The notes under the pieces were generated by a model, which did not search any database, had not been told where the DNA came from, and saw nothing but the letters and a program-made list of their open reading frames with translations. The translations under genes and the position numbers were made by a program. 64,000 bases of DNA, from IMG/VR virus record IMGVR_UViG_3300025168_000050. The stretch is one strand, 5' to 3'. This document shows positions 9,119 to 29,443 of this stretch, piece by piece. The DNA comes from an uncultured virus (IMG/VR IMGVR_UViG_3300025168_000050) (lineage: Duplodnaviria > Heunggongvirae > Uroviricota > Caudoviricetes). Each line of letters begins with the position of its first letter. Within the stretch, counting starts at the first letter, position 1.

Positions 9119-12100
9119 ATGGGAGAACCTAAAAAAGGCTCATCTTTGGATATAGCAAAGATGAATACTACATTGAATCCAATTACTGCTTTGCCAGAAG
9201 ATCAAAGCGGTCCACAATTACAAAGCGACGGAGGTCCGGTACAATATCCAGTAGATATTGAAAATTCGTTAGATGTTATTAGATATACACAAGCGAATTC
9301 TAATCAACGTTTTCAAACACCAACCGTGTTTGCAACGGACTATAATCAGATGCCTGATGTTAATTGGGATATAGAAAACGTACATAATATAAATAAAAGA
9401 AGAGCCTCTGAACAAACAGGATTATCACAGCTCGGGGGATTTTTAAATCAAGCTATTATAGGTGAAGTTGTAGGTGGGACATTAGAAGGGGTTGGAGCGC
9501 TAGGAGATGCTGTTGGTGGTCTGTTTATGGGCCAAATGCCTTGGGAGAGTGACTTTCAAAATTGGTTAACTGATTTCGGTGGAGATATAAGAGAAGCTAC
9601 AAAAGAGTATACACCTATATACCAGCAAAATCCAGGTAAAGGTTGGGATCCATCTGATTCAGGGTGGTGGGCATCTAACGGAGTATCCGTAGCGTCTACA
9701 CTTTCCTTACTTCTTCCGGCAATAGGAGTCGCAAGAGGAGCTTCATATGCAGGTAAAGGAATGAGATATTTAGCAGGAGCTGGTAAATCTTCTAGAAGTG
9801 CTATGGTAGCAAATGCTTCTCGTAAATTACAAAATGCTATGACTGCTGGTAGAGCTACTAACTTTGTAAGAAACTCTATGGCAATGGGTATTTCTATGAG
9901 GCATATGGAAAACTTTAGGGAAGCTGGAGAAACCTGGGATCACTCTTTTCAAAAGAACCTAGATTTTTTACAAGACCCTAAAAATTTCGAGAACTTTATA
10001 AACTCTTCGAATGGTGAAGCTATTTTAAAACAGTTAGGTATAACAACTGATGATCCTTATGTAAAAGATAAAGTAGCAAACCATGTTGCAGGACAAGCTG
10101 CAGCTAATTCTTATATAACAAACTGGTCTAATGTAGGATTTGATATACTACAAGCAGGTTTATGGTTTGGCCCTATGAAACTTGGTACCCGCCCTGGAAA
10201 AAACATATTTGGTAGACATTCAACTAAAGTAACAAAAGCGAATAATGCTACATTAAAAGCACCTAAAGTACCTAAGACAAGAGTAGGTAAAGCTTATAAC
10301 TATATTAAACCTATTATACCTCCAGCATTGTGGGCGTATTCAGAAGGTATAGAAGAACAAATTAACTTTATGAGTATGCAAGAAGGTATACGTCATGGGG
10401 ATATAATGATGGGTAATACAGGTTATGAAAACCGAGAATTTATGTCTGGTTCAAGCTGGGTTAATCGTATGAATGACTATGCATCTAGGGGAGATTTTTG
10501 GGCAGCTACTGCAATGGGTACTATAGGAGGGGGTATTTTTAGTGGTATAGCTACATTAAAAAATAGAAAAGCTCAAGCAGCTTTAGACCAAGCTAGATTA
10601 AAAGAAATTGGAGGAAGAGCTGATCTTATACAAAAGTCTTTAGAAAAAAGAAGAAAAGCTATAGAGAATGGAGATGTACAAGGAGCAAGAGAGCAGGATG
10701 AAATTATGGCATTACAGCTATCACTTAATTCAGCGCAAGCAGGAAACATGGACCAGTTAGAAGAGATGATGAATGATCCTGCATTTGTTGAGATGTTACA
10801 AGAAACAGGGCAAAGTGAATCAGAATTAGCTACAAGAAAAGCAGATCTAATAAATATCTTAAGAACTACTGAAAAGAAATTTAACACTTATAGAAATCGA
10901 GCAACAAGTTCTAAGTGGGGAGCCGGGGTTGCGGGAGCTCTTACTGAATTAGATATGAGTGTTACTATGTATGATAAGTTAATTAAAGACATAGATACAC
11001 AAATAGAGCAAAATATAAATGATGATATTTATAATGTTGAGCAGTATAATATAGGGCCTAATACAAAACAAAGGCACCAGTTACAGATGCAAAAAAGAGC
11101 TTTACAAGATCAGCTTAGTAAGTTTCAGCTTGCACAAGAAAGAGCCGAAGATGCATCAGAAGATACAACAGCATCAAAAGAAGAGAAAGAAAAATCTAAA
11201 GCATTAGCAGAGAATTTTAATCAGTATATAAATAACTTACAAGATCAAATTGCTAGAAACGAAACAGAAGAAAATGTTTTAAAAAAATCATCTCAAGAAA
11301 CATATGAGGATACAGCTTTAAGAGAAGAAAATGAATTTTTAGATAAAGTAGACAAAGGAAGTCTTACTACACTAGCAAATAAAAAACAACTATTTACATG
11401 GCATAGAGATGCTGCCTGGAATAGATTACAAGATTTATTAAAAGAAGAGAATCCTTACTACGAAAATGAGTCTGAAGTATCTGCACTGAATGACATAGCA
11501 GTAGTAGGTAAAGAACGTATTAAAGAAGAAGCTGAAAACAATGGTATTATAGATGATTTTAAAGAAGCTGTAAAAAATAATCCTGAGATGACTGAAGAAC
11601 AAGTTGACGAATTCTTTGCTCAGTATCCAGATAATGTAAAAATACAAGAATTCTATAATGAGTTTATACAAAGCTTTAAACAAGCCAAAGAAGAACAGGC
11701 TGTACAGCAGGCATATGAAGAAAATAAATCTAATTTAAATGCTTTAGCTAATCAAACTAGACAAGAAGTTAGAGATGAGATAGATCGTAAAATAGAACAA
11801 CTTAAGCAAGAACTTTTTAATCCTAAACTTAGTAGAAGAGATGTATCTAAACGTATTAAGATGGAGCAGGAGTGGAGAGAAACTCAAGGTAGAGCTACTG
11901 CCTATCTTTATGGTGATGCTCAGAGTATTAACATGCCTATATCTGAATTGTTTGATGAAGTAACACAGACTGTAGGAGTTGTTTGGGGTGATAAAGTTGG
12001 GTCTATTTATAGAGACACTGAAACAAACGAATTGATATTCCGGGATGGTACAACTCTTGAAGAATATATAGTAGATGAAAGTCCTTCAGCGCATAATTCA

Positions 12101-15100
12101 AGATATAGAAATGCTTTAGGACAGTTTACACAAGGTCCTACGTTAGGATCTTTAGATATGTTACTTAGAAGAGATGAATTATTAGGAATAGAAATAAACG
12201 CAGATGGTAGAACTTTTAATATTAATGGTGAATACTTTAATAATTTAACAGATAATCCATCTGACTCTATTGAATATGATAAAGAAGGGAATGTAGTGTC
12301 AGTTACATTAACTAAATGGAATGGTAAAAAAGTTACATTTACTAGTCCTTTAGTTACTTATGAACTGGCTGATGTTATAGAAACTTTAGAAGCAGTCAAA
12401 AGAACTGCTTTTAATAATTTAATTAACGATGATTTTTTAATCATAGAACAAAATGGTAAAGAGTATATAGTATCTTATGAGCAAGATTTATTTGATGGAG
12501 CTCTTGTTGTTAAAGATATTGATGGAGTTACTATTACAAGTGAGGAAGCAATACCAGTAAGAAGACAAGCGAACATACAATTATCAAACGCTATCCAAGA
12601 AACAATTAATAATATTAAAAACAAATACAATGAAGCTAACTCAACTAAACCGGCTGCTGCCCCTAGAATTACAGAAAACGCTTTCAGCGAAGGACAAGTG
12701 GAGCAGGGTGAAAACTCTCAGAAAGCTGAGGAAAGGATTACCGCTGAACTCAATGCAGAAGGTCAAACGAGCTCAGCCGGGCCAAACGCCTCCCAATCAA
12801 AATTAGATATTACTGAACAAGGAGAATTACTAGATGTCTTTGAACAAGATATAGAAACTAATCAAGATCAAATACAAGAGATAACTAATGAGGGAGAAAT
12901 ACCAACAGTCCAAAATCCAGATGCGGTTATTGCTATCGAAGAGCAAAATGCTATTATCGAAGCTACTGAGGATCCGAAATCAGGAAAAACTGTCGCGGAA
13001 GAAGAGACAACGCTAATAACAATCCCTGGAGCTACTACTAAAACTAAAACAGCATTAGAAAAATCTTATCCTGAATTCTTTCAGCCACAGGTAATAAGTG
13101 TAGTAGGACCAAATGGTAAGTTTACCCAGGCTAAAGATAAGAATGGTATGCTTATGCCAATATGGACTGCACCGGGAAAGAAAGGAGGTTTTTATTTTAA
13201 AGATATTTCAGAACTATCTCCTTCTGAGTTGGAGCAATTAGAAGATCAAAATAATGAAAGAGTGCAGCTTGTGTACTATAATCCACCGATGTTAATAAAT
13301 GAGAAACCTATTTATGAAGGCGGTAGAATAGTAGAACAAAATACAATGGCTCCATGGCAAGGATGGGATTATCAAAAGAAAATGGTTAAAGGACAACAAC
13401 AAGTATTAATGGTTGTACCTGATGCAGTAAAAGAAAAAGATTTATTTGATTTTAGATTATTAAATAGCCCAGAACTAGGGGTAGGCACTAAAGTTCTTTT
13501 ACGAATTGAACCAGAATATAAATACTATCCATCAAGTAATACCGGTGATATGATAGTTACAGTAAGACTAGCATCTGATCCATCAAAAGTTTTATCTGTT
13601 TTAAGTAGAAAGACTGCAAAAAGCCGTGCACTTAGAGCTAAGATAAGTGAGATGGGTAATAAAGATATTAAAGCTGTAATAACTGGGAAGACTCCTGGTT
13701 ATATAATTAACATTAAAAAAGATGGTAAGTCTATACAACGACCTATAGATGGAGATATGATTATAGGTATAGGACAAGACCAAACTGTTAGGTACAACAA
13801 TAGTGATGTAAGTGTTTCTCCTACATCTTACATAGAACAGGGTAGAGTTTATATAGCAGTACCTTCTGCTAATGGAGCGATGATACCTGTAAGAGCTGAA
13901 ACAGCATTACTTTCAGAAAAAGCTATAGATAAAGTATTAGATATTATTACAATGCAAGGAGTAGCTCCTAAAGAAAAAAGAGAGTTAGTAAATAAAATTG
14001 TATATACTCCAGTAGGATCTAGACAAGATCAAGCATTTAAACAGGCTAATAGTAAACGTATATTAGCTATGGATAACTTAGTAGTTAAAATACCTATTCC
14101 TGGAACAGAAAGAGTAATTGGTATTCAGTATAATATGGAAGGACTTGGTGATAAGATGAGAAATAATTTTCAGGATGCTATGAATGGTAAACCTTTCTTG
14201 TTTAAAGAGTATGATAGTCAAGGTAATATAATAACACATGAGTTAAGAAGAAGCGAAGATATTTCTCAGTTTGGACAGATCCCAACAATTATTAGAGATT
14301 ACTTAGCAACAAAAACATTTAATGTACAAAAACATTTAATTAATTCTAAACAAGAATTTTTTAGCCCACTACAAGATGGATCTTTTAAAGATTATAATAC
14401 TTATTTATCTGAGATGGATATAGTTACAACTGATATTCCAGGTGGTACAAGTCAAAGATTTCATCATAGTAAAATTTATGTAGAGGTAGCTGATAAAGTT
14501 AGTGATAATAAAATGCCAGCCTTCTTTAGTGAAGGTACCGAAGTTTTAAATACTACAGATATTATAGTAGAAACTGAACAGGATCTGATTGTAGAAACTA
14601 TGGGCGAGAACGTTGATATACTTGTAGACGAACCTGAAGTACAGAAAGTTTCAGATATATTTGGAGATATATCTCTAACACAACAAACTAGTATAGGTGA
14701 AGAGCTTGAGAGACAAGGAAATTCAATATACTATAAGGACACTGAAGAAGGGGAGGGTGGATTATATAACGAATACACTACAGAAGAAGAAGCTATAAAA
14801 GCTTTTGAAGCTTTAACACAACAAACTGGAGGTACAATGACAGTAACTACTCCTACTACAGCAGAAACTTATATAGACGGTACTGCAGGTAACCAGACTA
14901 TCGTAGAGATTGATCCAAATAAACTTGATGAAGATATAGACATAAAATTTAGAAAGTATGAAGAGTTAGACGCATCTACTCAATTAATAAGTGATGTAGA
15001 AAAACAATGGTTTTTATCTAGGTTTGGAGAAGAGGGTCTTACAGTTATGGATAGATTAAAGTATATGACTTTAAAAAATGGTAAACAAGCTTTTGGTTAT

Positions 15101-18100
15101 TACCAAAGAGGTATGGTTACTGTTGCAGAAATGGCACCTACAGGAACTATGTATTGGGAAGCTTTTCGTCGTATATATGATTTACATTTAACACCAGAAG
15201 AAAAAAGTGCTATAGAGATGGAGGTTATAGAAAAGCTGCAATCAGAATTCCAATCTGATACTATAGCTCCAGAAATAGATATTCAAACTCGTTTAGCTGA
15301 AGAGTTTATGAAGTATAGACTTAATGAAGACGAGTCGGGATTAGGCGCTACAATAAAAAAATTCTTTAAAGAATTACTTTACTACATAAAGAATATGTTA
15401 GGGATGAATTCTGAAATAGAAATTTTATTTAGAGATATTAGTAATAGAGATTTTATACTACCGCAAGAAGATGCAGAATTACAGTCTCAAGTACAGACAC
15501 CTGTACTGCGTGAAAAAACTGGGTTTACAGTAGAACAAGTAGATGAGATTGTAGGAGTTATGAATTACAATTTAAAAAATAAATTACAAGAACAGTATGG
15601 AGATAAGTGGTTAGAGGTTATGAAAGACCCTAAGCTTATGAAGTCTGTTTACACTCAGTTAAGGCAGGGCTTTGAAGAAACTGGAACAAGGCTACAAGCA
15701 TCTGAAAATGAGACACTTAAAAAGATAGGTAATAACTTTGCATTAGTAGCTCAAGAAAATAACTGGAAAGATAAAGTAGATGATTTAAACAATTTAGTTA
15801 GTCCCGGTTTTGAAAGCCTAGCAGTTAAAGCTTTAGATAATCAATTTGGAATAAAGTATAAAATAAAGAGAGACGGTAAGGTTGATACAGAAACTGTACC
15901 TTTTGTAGAAGAAGCAACTACTGAAGTTGAATCTAATGATGATGTATCTTTAGATGAACAAGTAGCCTTGAATGAAGAGCAGAGCAAAGAGCGTATACAC
16001 GGAGTCAATTACTATCATAGTTCAACAAAACCTACACTGTCTAAAGATATTAAAATTGAATTAGGATTTATAAAATCTGAAAAAGGAAAGTTCTTAGGCT
16101 CGAATAGATATTTACCATTTGATGAGGTATATGCATATCTATCTGTAGCGCTAGCTAATACACCCGGGGGTAATGTATTAAATAGACTAGAACAATTAGC
16201 AGAAAAGGGCCACCCAATGGCTAGTGAAGTACTTACAGTGTATGGAAGCTCATCTCCACAATGGCAAAATAAATTTGTTGCGCACTTTAATAAACAAAAT
16301 ATACAGTTTAAAACATTATTATTAGATGATAGTGGAGAAACAAGAACAATTCTTACTAATAGAAATGGATTAAAAAATCAAATTATTAATATATGGAATT
16401 CTAATAGACTTGATAGTGCAGTATTCCAAGAAGAGAATGGAGAAAATGATTTAATAGATTTAACTGAAGTAGACAAAATAAGAACAAGTTATGATACATT
16501 ATTACCTCTTCTAAAAAATCAAGGAGAACTCACAGACCAACAACATAAAGGACAGTACTTAAGAATCATGAAAGATACTTTAGATATGATGGGTATTACT
16601 TTTGATAATGTAGTATGGGAAGGAATATTTAATGATGAAACGATAAAAGCAATAGACCTAGAACAATATATGAGAGGTACTAATTCATTTGGAGCCGGAA
16701 TACTAAGAGCTTTGGAAAGAGGAGTTAGCCCGTATATGGCAGGTAACATGGAATCTGCAGCGCTTAAAAATCTTGCAGAACTAGCAGTAGACTATACAAT
16801 AGATAATTACATTGCATCATTTATGAGCGGTAATAAAAAACCTATCTATGCAATTAATTTAAATACTTATGATTCTAAAACAACATTAGAGTTAAGCTCT
16901 GATGAAACTTATGAGGCTGCTATTTTATCTAGATACAATGATGTATTCTACAGTCCTACAGAAAACCATAGACATTTAATATTAGATTTATTATTTAAGA
17001 ACCCTGAAGTAAGAGCTAACTTTGCTTTAAGTACATTCGATGTAGTTAAAGAAAAGAATACAGCTAGTAGATCTAATGCATATGATACTATGAGTCAGAA
17101 ATTATCTGCAATATCTAGATTTGCAATGTTTTATAATAATGGATTTAAGTATGGAGAGTTTAATACTGGTACTAAAGGTGATAAAACTCAGTGGAAATTC
17201 TTAAGCTTACCAAAGATAGGCCCTGAAAATACTGCATTAGGCTTATGGAAATCAGGTAAACCTGGATTAGATGGATGGTATGAAACTGGAGTACAGCTTT
17301 TAATGCCTGCAGCTTTAGGTGAAATGGCTAGAATAGCTAAGACTAATGACCAAATATCAGGAAATAATCCTATTGCATTATCAGAACAAATACAGAGTGT
17401 ACACTATAAGAAAAACCCTGGAGACCAACAAGGTAACGGTACTAGATTTGTACAATTCCCACAACTAAATAATCCTAAATATAAAATATTTGATGAAGGA
17501 GGGCTTATAAGAAAAGGTGTTAATGCTTCTAGTATGGCTCAGATTGAAGAGCTTAGAATTGGATTAAAGGAAGGGTTATTAAAATACTTACAAGATAATG
17601 TTCAACAAACTATAACAGCATTTGCTGAAGCTGGTGCAATTAATGTAAACGGAACTTCTATAACTAATGAATCATTACCTATATCTGCATTACGTGGAGA
17701 CATAATAAATAATGATATAACTACGGCTATGACTAGATTCGCAGTTAATGATTTAGTATATAAAACTTATATGCAAACTACATTTGGACCTGATTTAGCA
17801 TACTACAAAACTGATGACACTGGTAATCCTATTATAGAAGCAGGAAAAAGAGCTTATCAATCAATTACTCCTGGGCTAGAACCGGTATGGAATGAGCAAA
17901 AACAATTTGGACTTAAGCCTAAGTTCTCTCACACTATTTTAAAAGATATATTTAAAGATGGTGATACAGCAAGGTTCCAAAAAATATTAGAAAATGCAGG
18001 TGTAGAAACAAAAGAAGCAAAAAGAATTGCAACAGCTTATACGAAAATTAATAAGACTGATGCACAAGGGTTTACTACATTAGAATTCCATAAACATTTA

Positions 18101-21100
18101 ATGGAATCAGAAGGTACCTGGACACAGGAGCATGAGAATGCTTATGATAAATACTGGACAAAAGGATTGATGGGAGACATTGCCTCTAGAAAGCTATTAT
18201 TAAATCCTAGGAAAACATATTACTTTGGTGAAAGGCTTGTAACAGATTCTCAAGGAAACAATACAGTAACATTTGAGCAAATAAAGCATTCAACTATCCC
18301 ACTAATAAGAGAATTTACTGAAATGTTTAAAGGTACTGAAGATCAAGTATCTCTAAATAATTTAAGACAACGTATGGAGGGTACCGGTAGATACAAAGGT
18401 TTAGAAACTATTGATATGGCTAACTTTGAGTCTGCTATTAAAGTAGGAGCATCTGGTATAGAGAACATAGATAATCTACAAGGATTAAATGTAGAGATAC
18501 TAGAGACTAAGAATCTAAGATCTCCTCAAGTAATAGAAACAAAAACAAAAGCACCATTAGACGGAACACAGATGGCAAAACTAATACTATCAAATATTTT
18601 AGATAGTTATAATTATAATGTATTTGGAGGTAAGTATAATGGTAAGCAAATAAAAGATCTATATAATGAAATATATGCAGAGCGTATAAAAAGATCTCAT
18701 GATTCATTAACTAAAGAATTAGGATGGGATACATATCAAAATACTCTTAATCTTACAGATCTAAAAGCTAGAGATAAAGCTCAATTAGATTTCTTATTAA
18801 AAGTTAAAGATGTAGCTATAAATAGTTTAGAAGAAAGGGACTTACCAGACAACTACTACTTAGCGATGAAAATAGAAAAGCTAGTAGATGATGTAAATGC
18901 TTACGGATTCCAAGCGCCTTTATCATTCCCGCCGTTTGCAAAAAGATTTGAGAGTATCTTATTATCATTGTTTAAAAATAAAGTACTTAAACAAAGATTT
19001 AATGGTATGAGTGTTGTTCAGGTAGCAGAGTTTGGTTTTGAACTAGATACGCAACTTGAAATTAAAGCTCATAAAAATGGTGGAGTATATGCTGAAGTAG
19101 CATTACCTTATGAATTAGCAGCTAAACTTGGATTAAAACCAGGAGATACTGTAGACTCTAATGTAGACCCACAACTATTTGAAATTATGGGATATAGAAT
19201 TCCTACTCAAGGTAAAAACTCTATGTTATCTTTGAAGATTACAAAAATTTTACCAGAAAATATGGGGGGTGTAATTATATTACCAGCTGAGATAACTACA
19301 ATGATGGGTAGTGACTTTGATATTGATAAAATGTATCTTATGTTCCCAGAAATATCTAAAGCTAAAACAAAAATTAATGCATTTAATGCAGAGATATATT
19401 CAGGAAAGAAAGAGTTTGATGGAGTATCTGATAAGGCATTAACAAATGCATTGTTTGATATAAGACAGTCTATTATAACATCTAAGAACCATGTTAAGGA
19501 GTTAATGGATCCGCTAGATAGTAATACATATACATTAAAACTAGCAGAGTATGAGAAATTAGGAATTGTACCTAACTTATCTGATCTTAATATTAACTCT
19601 ACAGCTGCTGACATGTACTTAGAAAAGATTAACAAAGATGCGGCTTTACTGATTGGATTATTTTCATTACATTCTACAGGTCACGCAGTAGCACAAGACA
19701 TGGATGTAAAATTAAAAGATGATTTTGCTGTTAATATTCAGGCTGAGGGGTCGAAGTCACATACAGACTTAAGCAGAATATTAGGATTTAACGGACAGTT
19801 TATATCAAGTTATATTTCTGAAAATCAAAACGAAGCATTAGACAATGCTAAGTATCAAAGAATTGGTAGAGCAGGAGTATCAGTGTATAACAATGGAATT
19901 GTAGCACTATTAAACAGAATTGGATTTAGTAATGAAGGAGTAGCATTAGATTTTATTAATCAACCTATACTAAGAGAGTTTTTTGCAACAAGAAATTTAG
20001 AAGAAGAAAAGACAGACTATGCTATTGCAAAAGACTTAGCTAAAAAGTATGAGATGTTAGATACATTTGAGCTATTAAGAGAACAAACAATACATACTCC
20101 TAGCGCAGCTTCTTTAAAGAAAGATTTAGGAGGAACTCTAGCAGATAAAGAATTAGCTAAAAGACAGACGCAGATTTTATCTGATATGTTAAAATATTTA
20201 CAAGCAGGTAGAGATTTAGCGAAGTTTAATATGATAGTAAGTCCAGAAACACTGAAGAACTTTAGCAGACTTAGTTTTTTAGAGCAATTTAATAATAATG
20301 TAGCGTATTTAAATAGTGAAGTTTCATCTATTAATATTGGAAACACTACAGGTAGAATTCAAGCATATATAAACTATGGAATTAAAGCAGCGGAATCATT
20401 TACAGGACAATTTGTTCCGTTTAATGGCCCGGGCTTTAGCTTATTAAAAACAAATATAGCACAGTTAACTGGACAAAGAGATACTATCTTGAGCGCAGAC
20501 CTATCTGATGTAATAAATAGCTTTGGATTATTTTATTCATTAACTAAACGTACATCACCATTTGGGGATCTATTATATAATAAAAGAGATGCATTAGAAA
20601 AGAAACTATTTAATAAGCCTACATCTCTTCTTAATGATGTAATTAGAATCAAGAAACAATATAATTTACAAAACGACCCTTTCTTAGGTATGCTATATAA
20701 TTCTGCAGAGAATACAGGAAGAACACAATTTTTACAAACTATAGCATTTAACAATACTACTAAACTAAGTCCAGCACAAAAAAATAAAATAACAGACAGA
20801 TGGTCTGAACTTCTTATGGACCCGAGAGCAGAAGTAAGAAACTTAGCTCAAGATTTAGTTAGGTACTCTGTACTTACATCAGGATTTATGTTAGGACCTA
20901 ATTCATTTGTAGACTTAGTTCCAATGTCATACTGGAAGTCTTCAGGATTAACAGATTTCTTTAGAAAAGAAGAGAGAGGTATGGGATATGCTAATTATTT
21001 TGATGAAGGCGCAGCAGAACAGATTATAAGAAATATGTTTACAGATCGTAACCTCTTAAAAACTGTAGATAGTAAGAACTTAGTAACTACTGATCCTATG

Positions 21101-24100
21101 AGAAAGACACTAAGTATGAGTCAGAACGAATACTTTTTACATGAAGATGCAAATAGTAATTTAGTAGTACCGTCAGTAGATCCATTAGTATCTGAGTATG
21201 TAAAATATTTTAAATCTTTTAATGAAGGAAAGTTTAGATTATATAAGCATGTAAGAGATTCTAAAACAGGAGCTATATATGAAGAAATACAACCTTTAGG
21301 GGAAAGATTTAAATATGTAGAAATGGCAGGAGAAACTTTAATGTTAGAAAGTATACACCCATTAAACAAAGTAGTTAACCCAGCTCCTTCAAAACAACTT
21401 AATCCTACAATCACTGAAATTACAGAAGAACAAAACCCTGGAAATACTCAAAGTATCAATGATGTTATGCCACAGTTAACTCCTATAGTTAAAGAGAGTG
21501 TATTAGCAGATTTAGATGCAAGATTAGAGACTTGGTTATTGGAACACTTTAATATACCAGTTGAAAAGTATGATAACCTTAAACAAAAATTAGGTATTGA
21601 TGCTATTGGAGCAGCAGACATGGCAATGAAGACTGTTCAGATACAAAATGATCGAGACAGATATACATTACCTGAAGAAGCAGGACACTTCTATATAGAA
21701 ATGATGGACCAGTCTCCTCTTAAAACAAGATTATTTGAGCTAGTAGGCCAAACAAAACTTTATCAAGATGTATTAAAAGAATATAAAGATATATATACTA
21801 CAAACGAGCAGTTCATTAACGAAGCTGCCGGGAAAGTTCTTAGTAGATATATTGTAGGACAGGAATTAGGAATAGAACCTGAGTTTGTTCGTGGATCTGG
21901 TCTAATGAATACACTTAGAAACTTATGGGAATCTATTAAACGTTTCTTTAGAGGAGGTAACACAGCTGCAAATGATTTATCTGCACAATTATCTGAAGTA
22001 CTAGGACCTGCTGCAGTAGCAATTACATCTGGAGTTAATCCGGGGGGACTTAGTATAGAGAATATTGGTGTAAATAAATATTATGCATTGCAACCTCAGA
22101 ACATTACAGGATTAGCAGCGCAGTTACTTAAAAGAGGATCCGCACTAGCAGCTTCTAAAATTCCATACTTAAAAAACTTTACGCAGAGAGATGCTATGAA
22201 TCAGCTGATTGGGGAAAGTAATATGATTAGTGCACCAACTGAGCAAGACAACTACTATGTACAAGATGGGGTAAAAATGAATAGAGTAAGTAGGTTACTT
22301 GAGATATTCCAGGATCCATTTAATCAACAGGATATGGCAGAAAAAGTAGCTGCAACTAATAGAGGAGAAGGCAATGTGTTTAACACGGCAGATAAAGTAC
22401 AGAAGTTGTGGGATTTCTTACGAGATGATTTAGGAACAGGTTTACATAATATGATGGAGCAGATTGTACAACAACAAACAGACGATGTTATCTTATCTTC
22501 CGTTCCACAAGAGCAAAGAAAATCTTTTGAAAAAGCATTACCTTCATTAAAAGCCTGGGTAGCTGGTAAGATAGACAGTGGAAGTACATTATACTCTGAA
22601 GTTAAAATAGCAGATAAATCTGATTTATTAGCAGGGTCTGTAGATATTATAGAAATAACACCGACAGGTAGAAAAATTATACATGACTTTAAAACTAAAA
22701 TGCGCGGTAAGTTTGGAAATATAGAACAATCTTTACCTTCATTTAAAGGCGCACTTGCGTCTGTACCTAACACTTTACTTAATAAGTATAGATTACAGCT
22801 ATCTCTTTATAAACATATTATAGAAGAAAAAGGAATAACAATAGATGAATTAAATATAGTACCACTAGAAGCGGATGTAACTATGAACTCAGAAGGGACT
22901 ATATCATTCTCTAATGTAGGTCTTGCTACATCTAATACTCCGGTAATAAATAAACTAAATAATTTAAAGCCTATATCAAAGAAAGTAATTAAAGGCGCTA
23001 TTAGTTATATATCTCCTGAATTTGATGCATCTAATAAAAAGATCGAAAAAGAACAAGATACTGTGTTACGTGTATTTGAAAATGCTAAAAATCAAATACA
23101 AAGAAAGATTGATTTCTATAAAAAATCTAATAACAAAGAATACTCAGATCAATTACAAGAGTTGTATAATGAATTAGATGAGATAGGAGAAAAAGAAGGA
23201 CTAATTGTATTTACTAAACGTGCAGTGAGAGATATTAACTCTGCGCATGCAAGATTAAAAGAATTAGTAAGAAATAATGCAGTTACTCCAAAGAATTTAA
23301 ATCAAATATATCAGTTTGTAAAATCTTATGATAGTTTAGAAGAGATCACATTAATGGCTCCTATGTTAGTAGAGTCTGGTTTTGAAAATATGATTGAAAA
23401 ATATGTAATGCCTGCTATAGCAAAGAAAAATCTAGTTTATGAAGAGTATAAAGCTCTTGGAAGACCTTTGATAGCAGAAGCTTTAGCTAAATTGAGTACA
23501 AATCCTAATGTAACTGTTGATAAACTAGAAGCAGAACTTTTAACTTCAGGTAGAGATATATCTTTTATGGCTAGATGGTTAGATTCTTTAGGAGACTCTA
23601 CTCAAACTGAATTAGCTACAATGGATAAACTTATTGTATTACAAAGAGGGAAAGTAAACGAGGCTACATATAATCTAATGTACGGAACTAAAACTACAAA
23701 AAGTCTTATGAAACTTATGAAAGATCTTGAAAAGTTTCAATTTGATAATGGTGTAAATCTCTACAATAACAGAGCAGTTTATGACTTTATGTTAGAAGTA
23801 GGTACTGACGGAAACATGACTGGAAAAGTTGTTACAACACAAGACTCTAGATGGCTTGAATTAAAACAAGAATTTATGGAGACGGAAAACTTTACTAATA
23901 GTAAAGAAGATTGGGCATCATTCTATAAAGAGAATAAAGCAGAAGATTATAGAAGTCAGAAGTTTAAAGATATAGCAAACATGGCTAAAGAAGATCCTAG
24001 AAGAATGTTTTATGAATTCTATGCGGAGAATTACATGTATGCACAAAAACTTTTACCAACTAAATATAGAAAAGGAGCGCAATTACCGTCATTAAGAGCA

Positions 24101-25903
24101 ACAGCTGCAGAGAAAGTACTAGAGAAAAAAGGATCTTTCCCTTCAAGACTAAAAGATGCAGCTAAAGAGATGTGGACTGAAACATTTACAAAACATGAAG
24201 ATAATGTTTCTTATGGAGAATATGTAGACTCTGCAGGTAACCCATTAGATTTTGTACCGGTACATTACTCAAGAGCTATAGGTAATCAGGAAGGGCAATT
24301 AAGCCCAGCAGATTTATCATACGATTTAGGATCAGGATTAAAAATGTTCTTTACTATGGCAAATAACTTTAAAGAAATGTCAGAAATACTTGATGTACTT
24401 GAAGTCGGTAAAGAATTAATAAAAACAAGAAGAGTTACTAAACTATCATCTGGAATGGCTAAGAAAGATCAGATAGGAGAAGTAGTTACTACAGCAGGTG
24501 TAGATTCTAGAGCTTATGCTAGATTAAGTGATTACTTTGATATGCAAATATACGGTAAGCGTAAAAAAGATATGGGTGCAGTAACAATTATGGGTAAAGA
24601 GATAGATATAGCACAATCATTAGATGCATTTTTACAAGCAGGTAGTTTCCGTGTCTTGGCGCTGAATAAGCACGCCGGTTTATCTAATGCAACGTTCGGG
24701 GAAATGATGAGTTTTATTGAAGGGTATGCTAATCAGCATTACGGTGTAGGAAATTACGCAAGAGCTACTGCGATTTATGCAGCAGGTATAGCAGGATTAA
24801 CTAACGATGTAATGAAAAGACAGCCTTCTTCTAAACTAGGGATGATAAATGAACTGTATGATGTACAACAACATTTTGATGAATATGGAAATAGACTAGA
24901 GCATAGAAAGATAGGTTTAAGAGCTAGTGGTTCAGCATTATTCTTTATGATGTCTCTTGGAGAGCATGTAATACAAACTCAAATGGCTGTAGCTTCAATG
25001 TTAAATACTAAATTTAAAACTAGTAAAGGAGAAGTTAATTTATATGATGCATACTCAGTAGTAGATGGACGTCTTGAATTAGATCCTGAAGTAGAGGCAC
25101 AGTTTAGTTCAGAAGATAGAGTATTATTTGCTGAGAAAAATGCAGCAGCTTATCAACGTATCCACGGTATATATAATACTAAAGACAGAAATGCTTTACA
25201 GCAATATGCAATGGGAAGATGGGCAATGCAATTCCGTAAATGGTTAAGGCCTGGTATGCTTCGTAGATTCCAAGGTGCTGAAAAATTATTTTACAATAAA
25301 GATTCTAAATTTAAAGGACCTGAATACAATGAAAGACTACAATCATTTGTTGAAGGTAATTATGTTACAGCTCTTAAATTTGTAAACAGAATAAAAAAAG
25401 AAGTATTTGCTATGAGATTCCAAACTTTACCACAGCAGTGGGAAAAACTAGAAAAGTTTGAGCAGGAAAATATTAGAAGAGCTTTAGGTGAAAGTGCGGG
25501 ATATATGATACTAGTATTATTAGGAAGCGCAGTCGGATTTGGTTACGATCCAGATGATGAAGAGGGATCAGATAACATGACTGCACTAGATTGGCAAATG
25601 CTTTATAATGTAAAAAGAGTACAAGCTGAGATGGGATTCTATACTACTTCATCATTCTTTGAGATCTTAAGAACTCCTGCAGCAAACATGACTACTATTG
25701 AAGCATATTATAAATTTATAGAGCAACTTATGAGTGATGGTTCTTCATTAATGTTTGGAGGAGACTATGACAGGTATAAGAGAGATGCAGGAAGGTATAA
25801 GAAAGATGATCCAAAAATATTAAAACGATTCCATAATATATTACCAGGTAAAGAGTTATTTACAAAGCCGGAAGATAAACTTTCATGGTTTGATTTAAAA
25901 TAA
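9119..25903 (+). CDS. Giant virion-associated DNA-dependent RNA polymerase polyprotein (5594 aa)
   Basis: Catalytic 'GSDFDIDK' (DFDID at 19313-19327) is preceded by 'YRIPTQ', and 'TDAQG' and 'DNAK' blocks are present, as in crAss-type two-barrel RNAPs. Also carries zincin-like segments and a PD-(D/E)XK domain. Confidence 0.9.
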   Translation: MGEPKKGSSLDIAKMNTTLNPITALPEDQSGPQLQSDGGPVQYPVDIENSLDVIRYTQANSNQRFQTPTVFATDYNQMPDVNWDIENVHNINKRRASEQTGLSQLGGFLNQAIIGEVVGGTLEGVGALGDAVGGLFMGQMPWESDFQNWLTDFGGDIREATKEYTPIYQQNPGKGWDPSDSGWWASNGVSVASTLSLLLPAIGVARGASYAGKGMRYLAGAGKSSRSAMVANASRKLQNAMTAGRATNFVRNSMAMGISMRHMENFREAGETWDHSFQKNLDFLQDPKNFENFINSSNGEAILKQLGITTDDPYVKDKVANHVAGQAAANSYITNWSNVGFDILQAGLWFGPMKLGTRPGKNIFGRHSTKVTKANNATLKAPKVPKTRVGKAYNYIKPIIPPALWAYSEGIEEQINFMSMQEGIRHGDIMMGNTGYENREFMSGSSWVNRMNDYASRGDFWAATAMGTIGGGIFSGIATLKNRKAQAALDQARLKEIGGRADLIQKSLEKRRKAIENGDVQGAREQDEIMALQLSLNSAQAGNMDQLEEMMNDPAFVEMLQETGQSESELATRKADLINILRTTEKKFNTYRNRATSSKWGAGVAGALTELDMSVTMYDKLIKDIDTQIEQNINDDIYNVEQYNIGPNTKQRHQLQMQKRALQDQLSKFQLAQERAEDASEDTTASKEEKEKSKALAENFNQYINNLQDQIARNETEENVLKKSSQETYEDTALREENEFLDKVDKGSLTTLANKKQLFTWHRDAAWNRLQDLLKEENPYYENESEVSALNDIAVVGKERIKEEAENNGIIDDFKEAVKNNPEMTEEQVDEFFAQYPDNVKIQEFYNEFIQSFKQAKEEQAVQQAYEENKSNLNALANQTRQEVRDEIDRKIEQLKQELFNPKLSRRDVSKRIKMEQEWRETQGRATAYLYGDAQSINMPISELFDEVTQTVGVVWGDKVGSIYRDTETNELIFRDGTTLEEYIVDESPSAHNSRYRNALGQFTQGPTLGSLDMLLRRDELLGIEINADGRTFNINGEYFNNLTDNPSDSIEYDKEGNVVSVTLTKWNGKKVTFTSPLVTYELADVIETLEAVKRTAFNNLINDDFLIIEQNGKEYIVSYEQDLFDGALVVKDIDGVTITSEEAIPVRRQANIQLSNAIQETINNIKNKYNEANSTKPAAAPRITENAFSEGQVEQGENSQKAEERITAELNAEGQTSSAGPNASQSKLDITEQGELLDVFEQDIETNQDQIQEITNEGEIPTVQNPDAVIAIEEQNAIIEATEDPKSGKTVAEEETTLITIPGATTKTKTALEKSYPEFFQPQVISVVGPNGKFTQAKDKNGMLMPIWTAPGKKGGFYFKDISELSPSELEQLEDQNNERVQLVYYNPPMLINEKPIYEGGRIVEQNTMAPWQGWDYQKKMVKGQQQVLMVVPDAVKEKDLFDFRLLNSPELGVGTKVLLRIEPEYKYYPSSNTGDMIVTVRLASDPSKVLSVLSRKTAKSRALRAKISEMGNKDIKAVITGKTPGYIINIKKDGKSIQRPIDGDMIIGIGQDQTVRYNNSDVSVSPTSYIEQGRVYIAVPSANGAMIPVRAETALLSEKAIDKVLDIITMQGVAPKEKRELVNKIVYTPVGSRQDQAFKQANSKRILAMDNLVVKIPIPGTERVIGIQYNMEGLGDKMRNNFQDAMNGKPFLFKEYDSQGNIITHELRRSEDISQFGQIPTIIRDYLATKTFNVQKHLINSKQEFFSPLQDGSFKDYNTYLSEMDIVTTDIPGGTSQRFHHSKIYVEVADKVSDNKMPAFFSEGTEVLNTTDIIVETEQDLIVETMGENVDILVDEPEVQKVSDIFGDISLTQQTSIGEELERQGNSIYYKDTEEGEGGLYNEYTTEEEAIKAFEALTQQTGGTMTVTTPTTAETYIDGTAGNQTIVEIDPNKLDEDIDIKFRKYEELDASTQLISDVEKQWFLSRFGEEGLTVMDRLKYMTLKNGKQAFGYYQRGMVTVAEMAPTGTMYWEAFRRIYDLHLTPEEKSAIEMEVIEKLQSEFQSDTIAPEIDIQTRLAEEFMKYRLNEDESGLGATIKKFFKELLYYIKNMLGMNSEIEILFRDISNRDFILPQEDAELQSQVQTPVLREKTGFTVEQVDEIVGVMNYNLKNKLQEQYGDKWLEVMKDPKLMKSVYTQLRQGFEETGTRLQASENETLKKIGNNFALVAQENNWKDKVDDLNNLVSPGFESLAVKALDNQFGIKYKIKRDGKVDTETVPFVEEATTEVESNDDVSLDEQVALNEEQSKERIHGVNYYHSSTKPTLSKDIKIELGFIKSEKGKFLGSNRYLPFDEVYAYLSVALANTPGGNVLNRLEQLAEKGHPMASEVLTVYGSSSPQWQNKFVAHFNKQNIQFKTLLLDDSGETRTILTNRNGLKNQIINIWNSNRLDSAVFQEENGENDLIDLTEVDKIRTSYDTLLPLLKNQGELTDQQHKGQYLRIMKDTLDMMGITFDNVVWEGIFNDETIKAIDLEQYMRGTNSFGAGILRALERGVSPYMAGNMESAALKNLAELAVDYTIDNYIASFMSGNKKPIYAINLNTYDSKTTLELSSDETYEAAILSRYNDVFYSPTENHRHLILDLLFKNPEVRANFALSTFDVVKEKNTASRSNAYDTMSQKLSAISRFAMFYNNGFKYGEFNTGTKGDKTQWKFLSLPKIGPENTALGLWKSGKPGLDGWYETGVQLLMPAALGEMARIAKTNDQISGNNPIALSEQIQSVHYKKNPGDQQGNGTRFVQFPQLNNPKYKIFDEGGLIRKGVNASSMAQIEELRIGLKEGLLKYLQDNVQQTITAFAEAGAINVNGTSITNESLPISALRGDIINNDITTAMTRFAVNDLVYKTYMQTTFGPDLAYYKTDDTGNPIIEAGKRAYQSITPGLEPVWNEQKQFGLKPKFSHTILKDIFKDGDTARFQKILENAGVETKEAKRIATAYTKINKTDAQGFTTLEFHKHLMESEGTWTQEHENAYDKYWTKGLMGDIASRKLLLNPRKTYYFGERLVTDSQGNNTVTFEQIKHSTIPLIREFTEMFKGTEDQVSLNNLRQRMEGTGRYKGLETIDMANFESAIKVGASGIENIDNLQGLNVEILETKNLRSPQVIETKTKAPLDGTQMAKLILSNILDSYNYNVFGGKYNGKQIKDLYNEIYAERIKRSHDSLTKELGWDTYQNTLNLTDLKARDKAQLDFLLKVKDVAINSLEERDLPDNYYLAMKIEKLVDDVNAYGFQAPLSFPPFAKRFESILLSLFKNKVLKQRFNGMSVVQVAEFGFELDTQLEIKAHKNGGVYAEVALPYELAAKLGLKPGDTVDSNVDPQLFEIMGYRIPTQGKNSMLSLKITKILPENMGGVIILPAEITTMMGSDFDIDKMYLMFPEISKAKTKINAFNAEIYSGKKEFDGVSDKALTNALFDIRQSIITSKNHVKELMDPLDSNTYTLKLAEYEKLGIVPNLSDLNINSTAADMYLEKINKDAALLIGLFSLHSTGHAVAQDMDVKLKDDFAVNIQAEGSKSHTDLSRILGFNGQFISSYISENQNEALDNAKYQRIGRAGVSVYNNGIVALLNRIGFSNEGVALDFINQPILREFFATRNLEEEKTDYAIAKDLAKKYEMLDTFELLREQTIHTPSAASLKKDLGGTLADKELAKRQTQILSDMLKYLQAGRDLAKFNMIVSPETLKNFSRLSFLEQFNNNVAYLNSEVSSINIGNTTGRIQAYINYGIKAAESFTGQFVPFNGPGFSLLKTNIAQLTGQRDTILSADLSDVINSFGLFYSLTKRTSPFGDLLYNKRDALEKKLFNKPTSLLNDVIRIKKQYNLQNDPFLGMLYNSAENTGRTQFLQTIAFNNTTKLSPAQKNKITDRWSELLMDPRAEVRNLAQDLVRYSVLTSGFMLGPNSFVDLVPMSYWKSSGLTDFFRKEERGMGYANYFDEGAAEQIIRNMFTDRNLLKTVDSKNLVTTDPMRKTLSMSQNEYFLHEDANSNLVVPSVDPLVSEYVKYFKSFNEGKFRLYKHVRDSKTGAIYEEIQPLGERFKYVEMAGETLMLESIHPLNKVVNPAPSKQLNPTITEITEEQNPGNTQSINDVMPQLTPIVKESVLADLDARLETWLLEHFNIPVEKYDNLKQKLGIDAIGAADMAMKTVQIQNDRDRYTLPEEAGHFYIEMMDQSPLKTRLFELVGQTKLYQDVLKEYKDIYTTNEQFINEAAGKVLSRYIVGQELGIEPEFVRGSGLMNTLRNLWESIKRFFRGGNTAANDLSAQLSEVLGPAAVAITSGVNPGGLSIENIGVNKYYALQPQNITGLAAQLLKRGSALAASKIPYLKNFTQRDAMNQLIGESNMISAPTEQDNYYVQDGVKMNRVSRLLEIFQDPFNQQDMAEKVAATNRGEGNVFNTADKVQKLWDFLRDDLGTGLHNMMEQIVQQQTDDVILSSVPQEQRKSFEKALPSLKAWVAGKIDSGSTLYSEVKIADKSDLLAGSVDIIEITPTGRKIIHDFKTKMRGKFGNIEQSLPSFKGALASVPNTLLNKYRLQLSLYKHIIEEKGITIDELNIVPLEADVTMNSEGTISFSNVGLATSNTPVINKLNNLKPISKKVIKGAISYISPEFDASNKKIEKEQDTVLRVFENAKNQIQRKIDFYKKSNNKEYSDQLQELYNELDEIGEKEGLIVFTKRAVRDINSAHARLKELVRNNAVTPKNLNQIYQFVKSYDSLEEITLMAPMLVESGFENMIEKYVMPAIAKKNLVYEEYKALGRPLIAEALAKLSTNPNVTVDKLEAELLTSGRDISFMARWLDSLGDSTQTELATMDKLIVLQRGKVNEATYNLMYGTKTTKSLMKLMKDLEKFQFDNGVNLYNNRAVYDFMLEVGTDGNMTGKVVTTQDSRWLELKQEFMETENFTNSKEDWASFYKENKAEDYRSQKFKDIANMAKEDPRRMFYEFYAENYMYAQKLLPTKYRKGAQLPSLRATAAEKVLEKKGSFPSRLKDAAKEMWTETFTKHEDNVSYGEYVDSAGNPLDFVPVHYSRAIGNQEGQLSPADLSYDLGSGLKMFFTMANNFKEMSEILDVLEVGKELIKTRRVTKLSSGMAKKDQIGEVVTTAGVDSRAYARLSDYFDMQIYGKRKKDMGAVTIMGKEIDIAQSLDAFLQAGSFRVLALNKHAGLSNATFGEMMSFIEGYANQHYGVGNYARATAIYAAGIAGLTNDVMKRQPSSKLGMINELYDVQQHFDEYGNRLEHRKIGLRASGSALFFMMSLGEHVIQTQMAVASMLNTKFKTSKGEVNLYDAYSVVDGRLELDPEVEAQFSSEDRVLFAEKNAAAYQRIHGIYNTKDRNALQQYAMGRWAMQFRKWLRPGMLRRFQGAEKLFYNKDSKFKGPEYNERLQSFVEGNYVTALKFVNRIKKEVFAMRFQTLPQQWEKLEKFEQENIRRALGESAGYMILVLLGSAVGFGYDPDDEEGSDNMTALDWQMLYNVKRVQAEMGFYTTSSFFEILRTPAANMTTIEAYYKFIEQLMSDGSSLMFGGDYDRYKRDAGRYKKDDPKILKRFHNILPGKELFTKPEDKLSWFDLK

Positions 25904-26276: not shown

Positions 26277-26849
26277 ACTAATCGGTAAATCTGTGTTAAT
26301 TCCCATCTGTTTCTTAAACTTAACCCTATCAAATAACTCTTGATTGTAACTTACAATGGGCCATACTTCTGAATTGTCTGGTAGCTGTGCGTCTAGTTTT
26401 CCTTCCCAGTACGCACGCAGTGACTGTCCTTTATCGAGGACAAACGGAATGGCGCTAGTTCTACTACGATCTTTCATTAAACGAATTTTAGCGGGGTGAG
26501 AAAACTCTGAATACTTACCTTTTAAGAATAAATCATAATCCTTCTTAAATTCTTTATTTATAGTAAATACAAACATTATGTACCTACCTCTAAATAAAGA
26601 ATAAGAAGTTTTAAAATCCTCATGCTTTTCTATTTCCTTTTCTAAGTTATAATAGCGCATATCTCCACTATATTTTGTTAACACAAAAATATCTGGAGAC
26701 TCTAAATCCCAATCTAACAAACCTGTATCGCCAAGATATACATTTGTTAAATAAGGGTTTAGATTTACACTAGAATAACCTGTTAAAGGTAATAAAAAAT
26801 CGTAAGATTTAGTTTTCGAAATTTTCTCTGATTCGAGAGATTTTATCAT
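26262..26849 (-). CDS. Conserved hypothetical protein, last gene of replication block
   Basis: 195-aa ORF overlapping the upstream nuclease gene, with a 'GKYSEFS' block. Confidence 0.6.
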   Translation of the reverse strand: MIKSLESEKISKTKSYDFLLPLTGYSSVNLNPYLTNVYLGDTGLLDWDLESPDIFVLTKYSGDMRYYNLEKEIEKHEDFKTSYSLFRGRYIMFVFTINKEFKKDYDLFLKGKYSEFSHPAKIRLMKDRSRTSAIPFVLDKGQSLRAYWEGKLDAQLPDNSEVWPIVSYNQELFDRVKFKKQMGINTDLPISLTGR

Positions 26850-27840
26850 CTGATAATTTGATTTTAATTATGCCATTATTACTATAATACTCCATTGGGA
26901 AATCCCAACGGTTGTGGTCTTGATGCCATTTAAACCTGTTTAATAAGTCCTCGAACTCATCAATGGCTATAGATAAGTCAAGATTATCAGGTTCATATAC
27001 CACACACTCACAAAGTCCAGTCGTTTGAACAACTACAATATATGACTTTATATCATATTCTAGCGGATCTTCACCCAATTCTTTAAGATACCAGTTAATG
27101 GCTTCTTTATAAATTGCAATTTGTCTATAGTATCCATAAGAACTATAAGCTCCCATAAAATTATATACAGATTTAGCGGTGGTTTTAAGATCTACTATTG
27201 TAACTAACTTATTTTCTTTGTTAAGTATTAAATTATCAATAATGGATTTAATTAAATAAGGATAATCCTTATAAGTCCAAGAAAGTTCCAACTCAGCTTG
27301 AGCATTATTCAACTCTGAGGTATTACAAATATTACTTGCTACAGCATGTCCCGCGACACTAGCAGCGCATTGTTCTATTACTGCATAATCTTCCGACGAC
27401 AAAACTAACTTGCCTCTAGATTTTCTTAAGAACTCTAAGTAATTTGAATTTTCTTCTTTTTCTAGCTTTTTTATAACACCTGCTAGTGGTGTTTTAAAAC
27501 CTGCTTTTATATAACAAGTTTCGTACAACTCATCTATTGTATTAATAACAAACTCAGCAGGTGTATCTTCTGTGTCGTCATATACTGTAGACTGTATAAA
27601 TATTTCATTCTCAACTATAGCTTGTATAAAAGAGCCCATCATACCACCAACAACTGGTATGTCTGCTACCATATATCTACTTTCAAATTTATCATTTTCT
27701 AATAAATAACAATGTATTGCAGAGCCTAATTCAAATCCTTTACTAGATCTGTTTAGTTCTTTATTTTTATATTTTACAAAATATTGTGGGCTTACTTTTA
27801 ACGCGCTAAGAGAAGAATGACTTAGGTGATCTATTTTCAT
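26809..27840 (-). CDS. PD-(D/E)XK exonuclease (RecE/DUF3799-like)
   Basis: 'LSHSSL', 'GSAIHCYLLE', 'KSIIDNL', 'IVDLKTT', 'YYRQIAIY'. Confidence 0.85.
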   Translation of the reverse strand: MKIDHLSHSSLSALKVSPQYFVKYKNKELNRSSKGFELGSAIHCYLLENDKFESRYMVADIPVVGGMMGSFIQAIVENEIFIQSTVYDDTEDTPAEFVINTIDELYETCYIKAGFKTPLAGVIKKLEKEENSNYLEFLRKSRGKLVLSSEDYAVIEQCAASVAGHAVASNICNTSELNNAQAELELSWTYKDYPYLIKSIIDNLILNKENKLVTIVDLKTTAKSVYNFMGAYSSYGYYRQIAIYKEAINWYLKELGEDPLEYDIKSYIVVVQTTGLCECVVYEPDNLDLSIAIDEFEDLLNRFKWHQDHNRWDFPMEYYSNNGIIKIKLSDDKISRIRENFEN

Positions 27841-29423: not shown

Positions 29424-29427
29424 TTTA

Positions 29428-29435
29428 CAAATATA
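29428..29435 (-). promoter_or_regulatory. TAnnTTTG -7 element upstream of rIIB
   Basis: Minus strand reads TATATTTG-TAAA-ATG in the 20-nt rIIA/rIIB gap. Confidence 0.45.
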
Positions 29436-29443
29436 TTAATTAA

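Follow-up and report, generated by a model that had tools for sequence, protein, structure and literature searches.

An in-frame DNA joint as the probable site of module exchange in the giant virion RNA-polymerase gene of marine crAss-like phages

Results

The giant gene and its internal repeat

The stretch of DNA analysed here (the window) comprises 64,000 nucleotides (nt) from an uncultured virus of the Caudoviricetes (IMG/VR IMGVR_UViG_3300025168_000050) and contains a giant open reading frame (ORF) for a crAss-like virion RNA-polymerase polyprotein of 5594 amino acids (aa), named P0001. Within this ORF, the 14-nt sequence TAACACAACAAACT occurs twice on the + strand and encloses a short in-frame cassette (Table 1). 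Here it is proposed that these repeats are probably partial copies of an in-frame DNA joint at which marine crAss-like phages swap modules of the giant polyprotein. The public sequencing runs that hold the window sequence are marine or seawater metagenomes.

A Pfam search of the giant protein, made in three pieces, gave 0 families, and its only PHROG matches were to a 'virion structural protein' (phrog_16227, E 2e-16) and to an exonuclease in a stretch near the C-terminus. The PHROG matches given here and below cover 32 ORFs of the window, which is 64 of the about 86 kb of the genome (~22 kb lies outside). A tblastn link, a catalytic motif and the gene fusions of other phages place the protein by its sequence among the crAss-like virion RNA polymerases; its packaging in the virion and delivery into the host are predicted. 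With tblastn, which found 12 records, the protein matches the 'putative RNA-polymerase subunit' genes of crAss001 and crAssBcn over aa 1930-2109 only (24-30% identity, best E 1e-8), and a blastn search of 13000-16500 against phage records gave no match. The motif DFDID agrees with the DFDxD form, having Ile or Val at the fourth position, of the polymerases of the phi14:2 gp66 type. The DFDxD motif has been described for gp66, which serves Cellulophaga phage phi14:2 as its virion RNA polymerase; some crAss-like phages have a single polyprotein that combines gp66 with gp65 (zincin-like) and gp67 (10.1101/2020.03.07.982082).

Distant relatives have the zincin motif HExxH at the stretch matching aa ~2005-2020, where they read HEAFH, HEAMH or HEALH. 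The window protein reads WEAFR, having lost both histidines, and has no HExxH anywhere; 'YWEAF' is kept among the close homologues. Because both zinc-binding histidines are lost, the peptidase is probably inactive in the clade of the window phage. The repeat lies just before the zincin-like and RNA-polymerase region, as had been stated from the sequence alone, given the tblastn match at aa 1930-2109, the HExxH equivalent and the DFDID at aa 3399.

An exact search and the ORF translation agree on the repeat itself. The 14-mer has exactly two exact matches in the window, 138 nt (46 codons) apart, and both are in frame, encoding L-T-Q-Q-T at aa 1853-1857 and 1899-1903. The enclosed peptide also reads as quoted in the original prediction, which had further described LTQQT as encoded twice with identical codons. 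This is correct for T-Q-Q-T (ACA CAA CAA ACT in both copies) and not for the leucine, which is CTA in one copy and TTA in the other, leaving an identity of 14 nt, or of 16 out of 17. Exact direct repeats of at least 14 nt at a spacing of up to 300 nt number three in the window. With up to two mismatches allowed, the 14-mer has three matches against 1.0 expected, and three or more were obtained in 6 of 100 shuffles. Another exact direct repeat, of 15 nt (ACAAAAACATTTAAT), is found at 14309-14340 in the giant gene, its copies 17 nt apart and out of frame, which illustrates that repeats of about this length arise by chance.

Short imperfect palindromes stand directly before each copy of the repeat, at 14648-14679 and 14790-14813 (GTTTCAGATATAT/ATATATCTCTAAC and AAGCTATAAAAGC/GCTTTTGAAGCTT). 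In RNA folding, the 221 nt of 14640-14860 reached z = -3.0, a value matched by 1 of 200 shuffles, and formed only local hairpins. No comparable structure is kept upstream of the joint across 18 distinct contexts (described below), and the palindromes and hairpins are probably due to chance in AT-rich DNA.

An insertion hot spot at the repeat

A set of 15 homologues (P0002-P0016, 3237-5935 aa) aligns with the giant protein on both sides of the repeat region. The full-length alignment included 15 sequences, P0010 being left out as a truncated protein. In this alignment, the segment matching aa 1850-1929 ranges from 14 to 381 aa, while the next largest range is 74 aa, due to a single sequence, and all others are at most 33 aa. 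The repeat site is thus the single large length-variable site, or insertion hot spot, of the family. Collinearity of the homologues at this place, which would speak against a cassette site, was not found.

Unlike modules fill the hot spot in P0001, P0004-P0008, P0010 and P0015, and Pfam and PHROGs name almost none of them. These include a module of ~30 aa beginning GGTMTVTTP (module A in Table 1), which is present in P0001, P0004, P0005, P0006 and P0008 and missing from the other relatives, and a VTYKGTKYSV... module shared by P0005 and P0008. Larger modules are found in P0006/L009, P0007/P0010 and P0015. A GNAT-like nature of the P0007/P0010 module was considered and is not claimed, as Pfam gave P0010 no family. 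The nearest relative with available DNA sequence, L001 (81% aa identity), has a linker of 17 aa where the window has 81 aa, and it lacks the cassette.

A joint of ~27 nt conserved as DNA

Judging by related sequences, the repeats of the window are most likely partial copies of a joint of ~27 nt, CCA RCA CAA CAA ACT AGT GAG GTT GAA, encoding P-T/A-Q-Q-T-S-E-V-E; the 14-mer corresponds only to its 5' part. In P0008 (loci L005/L013), three module borders all read ...CAA or CCA, followed by ACT AGT GAG. The exact 15-mer CAACAAACTAGTGAG was found at 63 IMG/VR loci, and in 54 of them the longest open frame reads QQTSE, mostly within P(T/A)QQTSEVE. The codons adjoining the 15-mer are clearly non-random over its 65 occurrences: GTT follows in 36, ACA or GCA precedes in 42, and CCA stands one codon further upstream in 32. 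The signal of the 15-mer therefore lies in its frame, its extension and its context, and not in its count.

With a codon-agnostic pattern, P-x-Q-Q-T-(any WSN codon)-E-V-E, 32 loci were obtained, 26 of which read P.QQTSEVE. These 26 loci all have CCA, ACT and AGT at the respective positions, with CAA at each Gln in 25/26 and GTT in 24/26, and AGT makes up only 24% of the Ser codons in the giant gene of the window. After removal of look-alike flanks at a 70% identity cut chosen by the authors, 18 distinct contexts were left, in which identity is 0.72-1.0 from position -2 (before CCA) to +26 (end of GAA) and 0.3-0.6 outside. The synonymous positions of the joint are thus nearly invariant in the 26 loci and the 18 contexts, contrary to the free variation that would have counted against the original prediction.

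The tetranucleotide CTAG is a rare word, among the rarest in bacterial and phage DNA. The joint contains it within the palindrome ACTAGT (e.g., in L083 and L110); if it is indeed so rare, keeping it this strictly is surprising and could have to do with a nuclease or with repair.

Exchange at the joint in other phages

In all five (5/5) of the enlarged carriers of the joint that were examined, it occurs only inside giant ORFs, of 3477-4197 aa, whose products are distant relatives of P0001 around the polymerase core. Compared with L110, the carrier L111 has an insert of 504 nt (168 codons) bounded by an exact 22-nt repeat of the joint, with flanks 81-88% identical, while L113 is 89% identical to L110 on the right side of the joint and, at 34%, unrelated to it on the left side. 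A module of the family DUF7831 (PF25176) is found at aa 1180-1289 of L112 and at aa ~3171-3314 of L113; the two copies are 80% identical in otherwise dissimilar giant proteins. In both proteins, this module has ...TNEVEV / ...QQTNEVEV to its left and PTQQTSEVE to its right. Natural breakpoints between relatives also fall at the joint for P0026 against L116, for the window against L115 and for contigs of the runs X1 and X2, as given below. The repeat-delimited in-frame indels expected from the original prediction do exist, both as the insert of L111 and as the window's own cassette, which is present in P0026 and absent from L116.

The cassette of the window

The cassette, also called module C, had been described from the letters alone as a small folded module, and both a structure prediction and its recurrence in other proteins bear this out. 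An AlphaFold2 model, made with an alignment of four sequences, has a mean predicted local distance difference test (pLDDT) score of 75.2, with strands at 11-14, 17-20 and 29-33 and a helix at 37-52, and the LTQQTS and QQTGG ends have pLDDT <50; the cassette is thus predicted to be folded and the joint peptide disordered. A Foldseek search of the model against the PDB gave nothing at E <= 0.001 (best E 0.83).

The cassette recurs in P0026 (98% identity), in P0027 (74%) and, twice in tandem near the C-terminus, in P0021, and the copies of P0027 and P0021 are each bordered by Q-(Q/P)-T-S-E. Searching the giant proteins with aa 1848-1932 found it only in P0021, and searching the representatives with the cassette gave three matches (P0026, P0027 and P0025). 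P0025, a leucine-rich-repeat-like protein matched over nine weak stretches, was judged spurious and dropped as a carrier. An exact 29-mer from the interior of the cassette had 0 matches in IMG/VR, and a metagenome scan with the 85-aa region gave three loci, all matched through module A and none with the cassette. By these comparisons, the cassette is a real, travelling small domain.

P0026 is a second giant protein, and its sole BLASTP match to P0001 (E <= 1e-5) is the cassette region, aa 1446-1515 against aa 1839-1902. The context reads ...VEAP-TQQT-SIGEE...FEAL-TQQT-SEVNEG..., with TQQT on both sides. Its close relative L116 has a single joint (APVAQPTSEVEE) and no cassette, reading ...VEAPVAQPTSEVEES... 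at that place. As judged from these alignments, P0026 holds the repeat-bounded 46-codon unit of the window inserted in an unrelated giant gene. The L115 sequence matches the final 51 nt of the cassette of the window without a difference, and its similarity stops directly behind ACA CAR CAA ACT.

The public runs were available as assembled Logan contigs and not as reads, in which rare variants and absences cannot be judged; X1, X2, X3 and X16 of the 22 runs listed were used. In X1, which may be the source sample, the flanks of the window have a depth of ~85x and their contigs run into the cassette (to 14706 and from 14791), and a 144-nt contig with a depth of 73.9 covers 14677-14820. Two other contigs, at ~25x, share only 14673-14706 and 14791-14827 with the window before continuing into unlike sequence, and their loose ends, when translated, correspond to the flanks of P0026. 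The assembly graph branches at 14676 (T/C) and 14821 (A/G). From this layout and the translated ends, it follows that two co-occurring phages share a block of ~155 nt (14673-14827) with two differences, at 14676 and 14821. The block contains the cassette and both repeats, and its flanks are unlike.

The sharing of this block by two phages accounts for the end of the nearest virus record (G001) at 14674 and its beginning at 14815, and for the start of the L115 contig inside the cassette; shared cassettes are likely a general cause of fragmented assemblies in these phages. Contigs of X16 (14509-14748) and X3 (14751-14939) bridge copy 1 and copy 2 of the repeat, respectively. A contig of X2 joins 14673 to 14900 via 31 nt encoding ...DEVVVQQTSE..., representing a near-identical phage with one joint and neither module. 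The precise 138-bp deletion looked for on the basis of the original prediction was not present in the contigs of these four runs, which cannot show absence.

Other features of the window

The rest of the window fits a crAss-like phage, with PHROG matches to terminase, portal, major head protein, DNA polymerase, primase and helicases. Two genes with functions relevant to recombination, for a single-stranded DNA (ssDNA)-annealing protein and an exonuclease, are listed in Table 1. The exonuclease-like stretch of the giant protein (aa ~4368-4584, 22220-22870) matches phrog_298 'exonuclease' (E 6.8e-13), and the relative P0017 has PF12705, which suggests a nuclease domain fused to the virion polymerase. 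This marine crAss-like phage also has rIIA-like and rIIB-like genes (phrog_612, phrog_609) at 28413-31906 on the - strand.

Table 1. Positions in the window of the giant gene, the parts of its hot spot and candidate recombination genes
Feature	Position	Strand	Basis and remarks
Giant ORF, 5594 aa, crAss-like virion RNA-polymerase polyprotein	9119..25903	+	ORF list, tblastn, DFDID, homologues of 5472-5935 aa
Hypervariable insertion site (aa 1850-1929)	14666..14905	+	Full-length alignment of 15 sequences
Repeat copy 1	14676..14689	+	5' half of joint: cTA ACA CAA CAA ACT, then AGT; ACA CAA CAA ACT AGT common to joint consensus
Cassette 'module C' (SIGEELERQGNSIYYKDTEEGEGGLYNEYTTEEEAIKAFEA), 41-aa domain, three strands plus helix (predicted)	14690..14813	+	AlphaFold2 model; recurrence in other proteins
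Repeat copy 2	14814..14827	+	5' part of joint: tTA ACA CAA CAA ACT, then GGA
Module A (GGTMTVTTPTTAETYIDGTAGNQT), second optional module	14828..14905	+	Present or absent among relatives
WEAFR where relatives have zincin HExxH	15155..15169 (aa 2013-2017)	+	BLASTP against L110-L113; HExxH listings for P0017, P0018, P0020, P0021
DFDID catalytic motif of crAss-like virion RNA polymerases	19313..19327 (aa 3399)	+	Motif search
Exonuclease VIII-like gene, candidate recombination exonuclease	26809..27840	-	phrog_412, E 4e-30; possible tie to joint
Sak4-like ssDNA-annealing protein, candidate recombinase	33580..34251	-	phrog_2872, E 5.9e-60; possible tie to joint

Discussion

Proposed role of the joint

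The joint would separate small, independently folding modules in the giant polyproteins of marine crAss-like phages. It is near-identical as DNA at each occurrence, so that recombination could take place between two joints, either within one genome or between co-infecting phages, and would insert, delete or replace a whole module with the frame kept. In the window, the 41-aa domain would be flanked by two worn joints within the hot spot, shortly before the zincin-like part. The exchange may be ordinary homologous recombination on short homology, perhaps via the Sak4-like annealing protein and the exonuclease of the phage, and the modules may be accessory cargo delivered with the polymerase. 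In the sequences compared, the hot spot, the joint-bounded presence/absence pairs and the invariant silent positions are shown, as is the occurrence of the cassette in unrelated contexts, and the proposal builds on these.

Several observations weigh against this proposal. The 14-nt repeat alone is no more than chance would give: when the synonymous codons of the gene were shuffled 300 times with the amino-acid sequence kept, 13% of the shuffles contained a comparable in-frame repeat, and the significance of the repeat comes only from the comparison with other sequences. The copies of the window match the joint over only 15 nt and 12 nt, the full 27-mer consensus has no match within three mismatches in the window, and G001 has no canonical joint elsewhere; the joints of the window phage may be relics too short to recombine now. 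A joint-like motif is found in the hot-spot segment of only 4/16 family members, and the modules of P0004, P0006, P0010, P0015 and L009 lack joint-like borders. The raw count of the 15-mer is not above its control, the reversed-letter sequence having 56 IMG/VR loci against 63, and the 26 joint matches are not independent, as IMG/VR is redundant. In addition, recombination is inferred here from comparing sequences, with no event directly observed. Concerning the reversed 15-mer, it may be a poor control, as the joint contains CTAG. The depth of the cassette contig in X1 also falls short of the about 110 to which the two phages add up, and this discrepancy is unexplained.

Alternative explanations

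The repeat could be a coincidence of codon usage, as the shuffles would allow, or a chimeric assembly with a co-occurring phage, since the assembly graphs branch here and the records of G001 and L115 break at or inside the cassette. However, two assemblies give the same 5594-aa protein, two residues apart (P0001, P0024), the 85x contigs of X1 enter the cassette from both flanks, and the depth of the cassette contig is 73.9 and not about 25. Contigs from other studies bridge each copy of the repeat (X16 and X3), and the silent-site conservation, the 18 contexts, the P0026/L116 pair and the hot spot remain unexplained by chance. Chance or artefact is therefore scarcely credible as an explanation. 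An enzyme-directed system, integron- or homing-like, in which a recombinase or nuclease cuts at the palindromic ACTAGT core of the joint (a palindrome read from the consensus) and inserts cassettes, would suit the sharply bounded conserved site of ~27 nt and the direct repeats of the site that bound the cassettes. It is nevertheless very unlikely. The PHROG matches of 32 window ORFs include neither an integrase nor anything annotated as a homing endonuclease, and no inverted pair joins the cassette ends, which have neither MITE-like (miniature inverted-repeat transposable element) nor attC-like ends but only the local palindromes before each copy. The leftover repeats vary (14, 15 and 22 nt), as do the crossover points within the joint, for which homologous exchange is a better fit than a fixed cut, and the joint is confined to the giant ORF in the carriers examined.

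Another explanation is at the level of the protein, where P-T-Q-Q-T-S-E-V-E would be a processing site at which the polyprotein is cut into modules after Glu, with the two repeats of the window marking two of these sites and the DNA identity as a by-product. Many phage head proteases cut after Glu. The joint peptide is kept between unrelated modules and is predicted to be disordered, both of which suit a cleavage site. Fused crAss-like polyproteins have been described as 'likely cleaved into individual components', the zincin-like protease domain included (10.1101/2020.03.07.982082), and autoproteolysis by zincin-like domains has been proposed for polyvalent proteins (PMC5512222). Against this, selection on the peptide leaves the invariant silent positions unexplained (AGT 26/26), and the window copies lack S-E-V, reading TQQTSI and TQQTGG, and are therefore not such processing sites. 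The zincin HExxH is lost in the clade of the window, no head protease was found among the PHROG matches of 32 window ORFs (64 of about 86 kb), and the motif occurs in no ORF of the window other than the giant gene. Processing as the sole explanation is unlikely, though a processing role that coexists with the recombination role is plausible. It is likewise unlikely, and would go further than the proposed exchange by recombination, that the joint is a dedicated, selected signal. As such, it would be a common 'socket' of many unrelated marine phages giving access to a pool of exchangeable injected modules, perhaps read by a nuclease or recombinase at ACTAGT and perhaps doubling as the cut site of the polyprotein.

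Comparison with known systems

In the tail-fibre and adhesin genes of T-even phages, segments are also exchanged in frame at conserved motifs (Tetart et al. 1996/1998, cited in Trojet et al. 2011, PMC3157838). As in that system, the variable segments here lie within an ORF next to a conserved DNA motif, and the natural breakpoints between these uncultured phages fall at the motif. The T-even motifs, however, belong to the structure of a single fold (glycine-rich core, His boxes), and host range is set by the loops or fibre segments that are swapped (PMC3157838), whereas the joint described here is predicted to be a disordered linker, which connects autonomous domains unrelated to each other in a polymerase polyprotein that would be packaged. 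Here, entire domains are gained or lost, and very distant proteins have the joint in common. Similarly, in the PeSL mobile regulatory cassettes of T4-type phages, a short stretch of conserved DNA borders the places where sequence was inserted, deleted or replaced, and recombination at it has been proposed to direct the shuffling of modules (Arbiol et al. 2010, PMC2839356). PeSLs are intergenic units of a promoter and a stem-loop that move whole genes (PMC2839356), whereas the joint is coding and in frame and would move domains within one gene.

The giant protein also resembles the polyvalent proteins (Iyer, Burroughs, Anand, de Souza and Aravind 2017, PMC5512222), which are giant, multidomain and delivered with the DNA, and whose content varies strongly between relatives; in phages and conjugative elements, they often carry zincin-like peptidase and RNA-polymerase domains. 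The window protein and its homologues likewise combine many unrelated domains, and which of them are present differs between relatives. That paper describes architectures; 'linker' occurs 0 times in its main text, and the passages concerned contain no DNA-level joint. In contrast, the zincin motif of the window protein is degenerate, without HExxH, and a mechanism for the variability is proposed here. The resemblance to gp66 of phi14:2 and the fused polyproteins includes the DFDxD motif, the predicted role as virion cargo and, in some phages, the fusion of gp65 and gp67, while the passages of the preprint on these proteins have neither a variable insertion site nor a repeated joint (10.1101/2020.03.07.982082).

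The original prediction had compared the site with an integron array inside one gene. The likeness holds for the outcome, an ordered site that gains and loses cassettes bounded by a repeated sequence. As a mechanism, the comparison is not sustained, as the PHROG matches of 32 window ORFs include no integrase and the cassette ends have no inverted repeats of the attC type. Integron cassettes are promoterless genes, whereas the cassettes here are in-frame domains. Accordingly, the suggestion of an in-frame insertion or recombination site for domain cassettes agrees with the exchange pattern and the silent-site conservation, but not in its integron-type mechanism, nor in taking TQQT-like repeats as general module borders, given the few family members that carry the motif in the segment and the modules that lack it.

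No published account of the joint was found in a literature search on the motif strings and on joints in phage polyproteins, a search whose scope did not extend to most subscription journals. The motif exchange of T-even phages, the PeSL cassettes and the variable polyvalent proteins were known already.

Implications

Giant proteins that are injected with the phage DNA are thought to carry tools against host defences, and to our knowledge the rapid change of their domain content has so far had no explanation. As a practical handle, the joint would allow module borders to be located in proteins that are blank to Pfam and PHROGs, and shared cassettes also explain assembly breaks such as those of G001 and the L115 contig. 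If the joint were a dedicated signal, it would amount to an integron-like system for protein domains inside one reading frame. As a joint at the level of DNA, it offers a simple, testable mechanism, which would let unrelated phages trade ready-made domains in frame.

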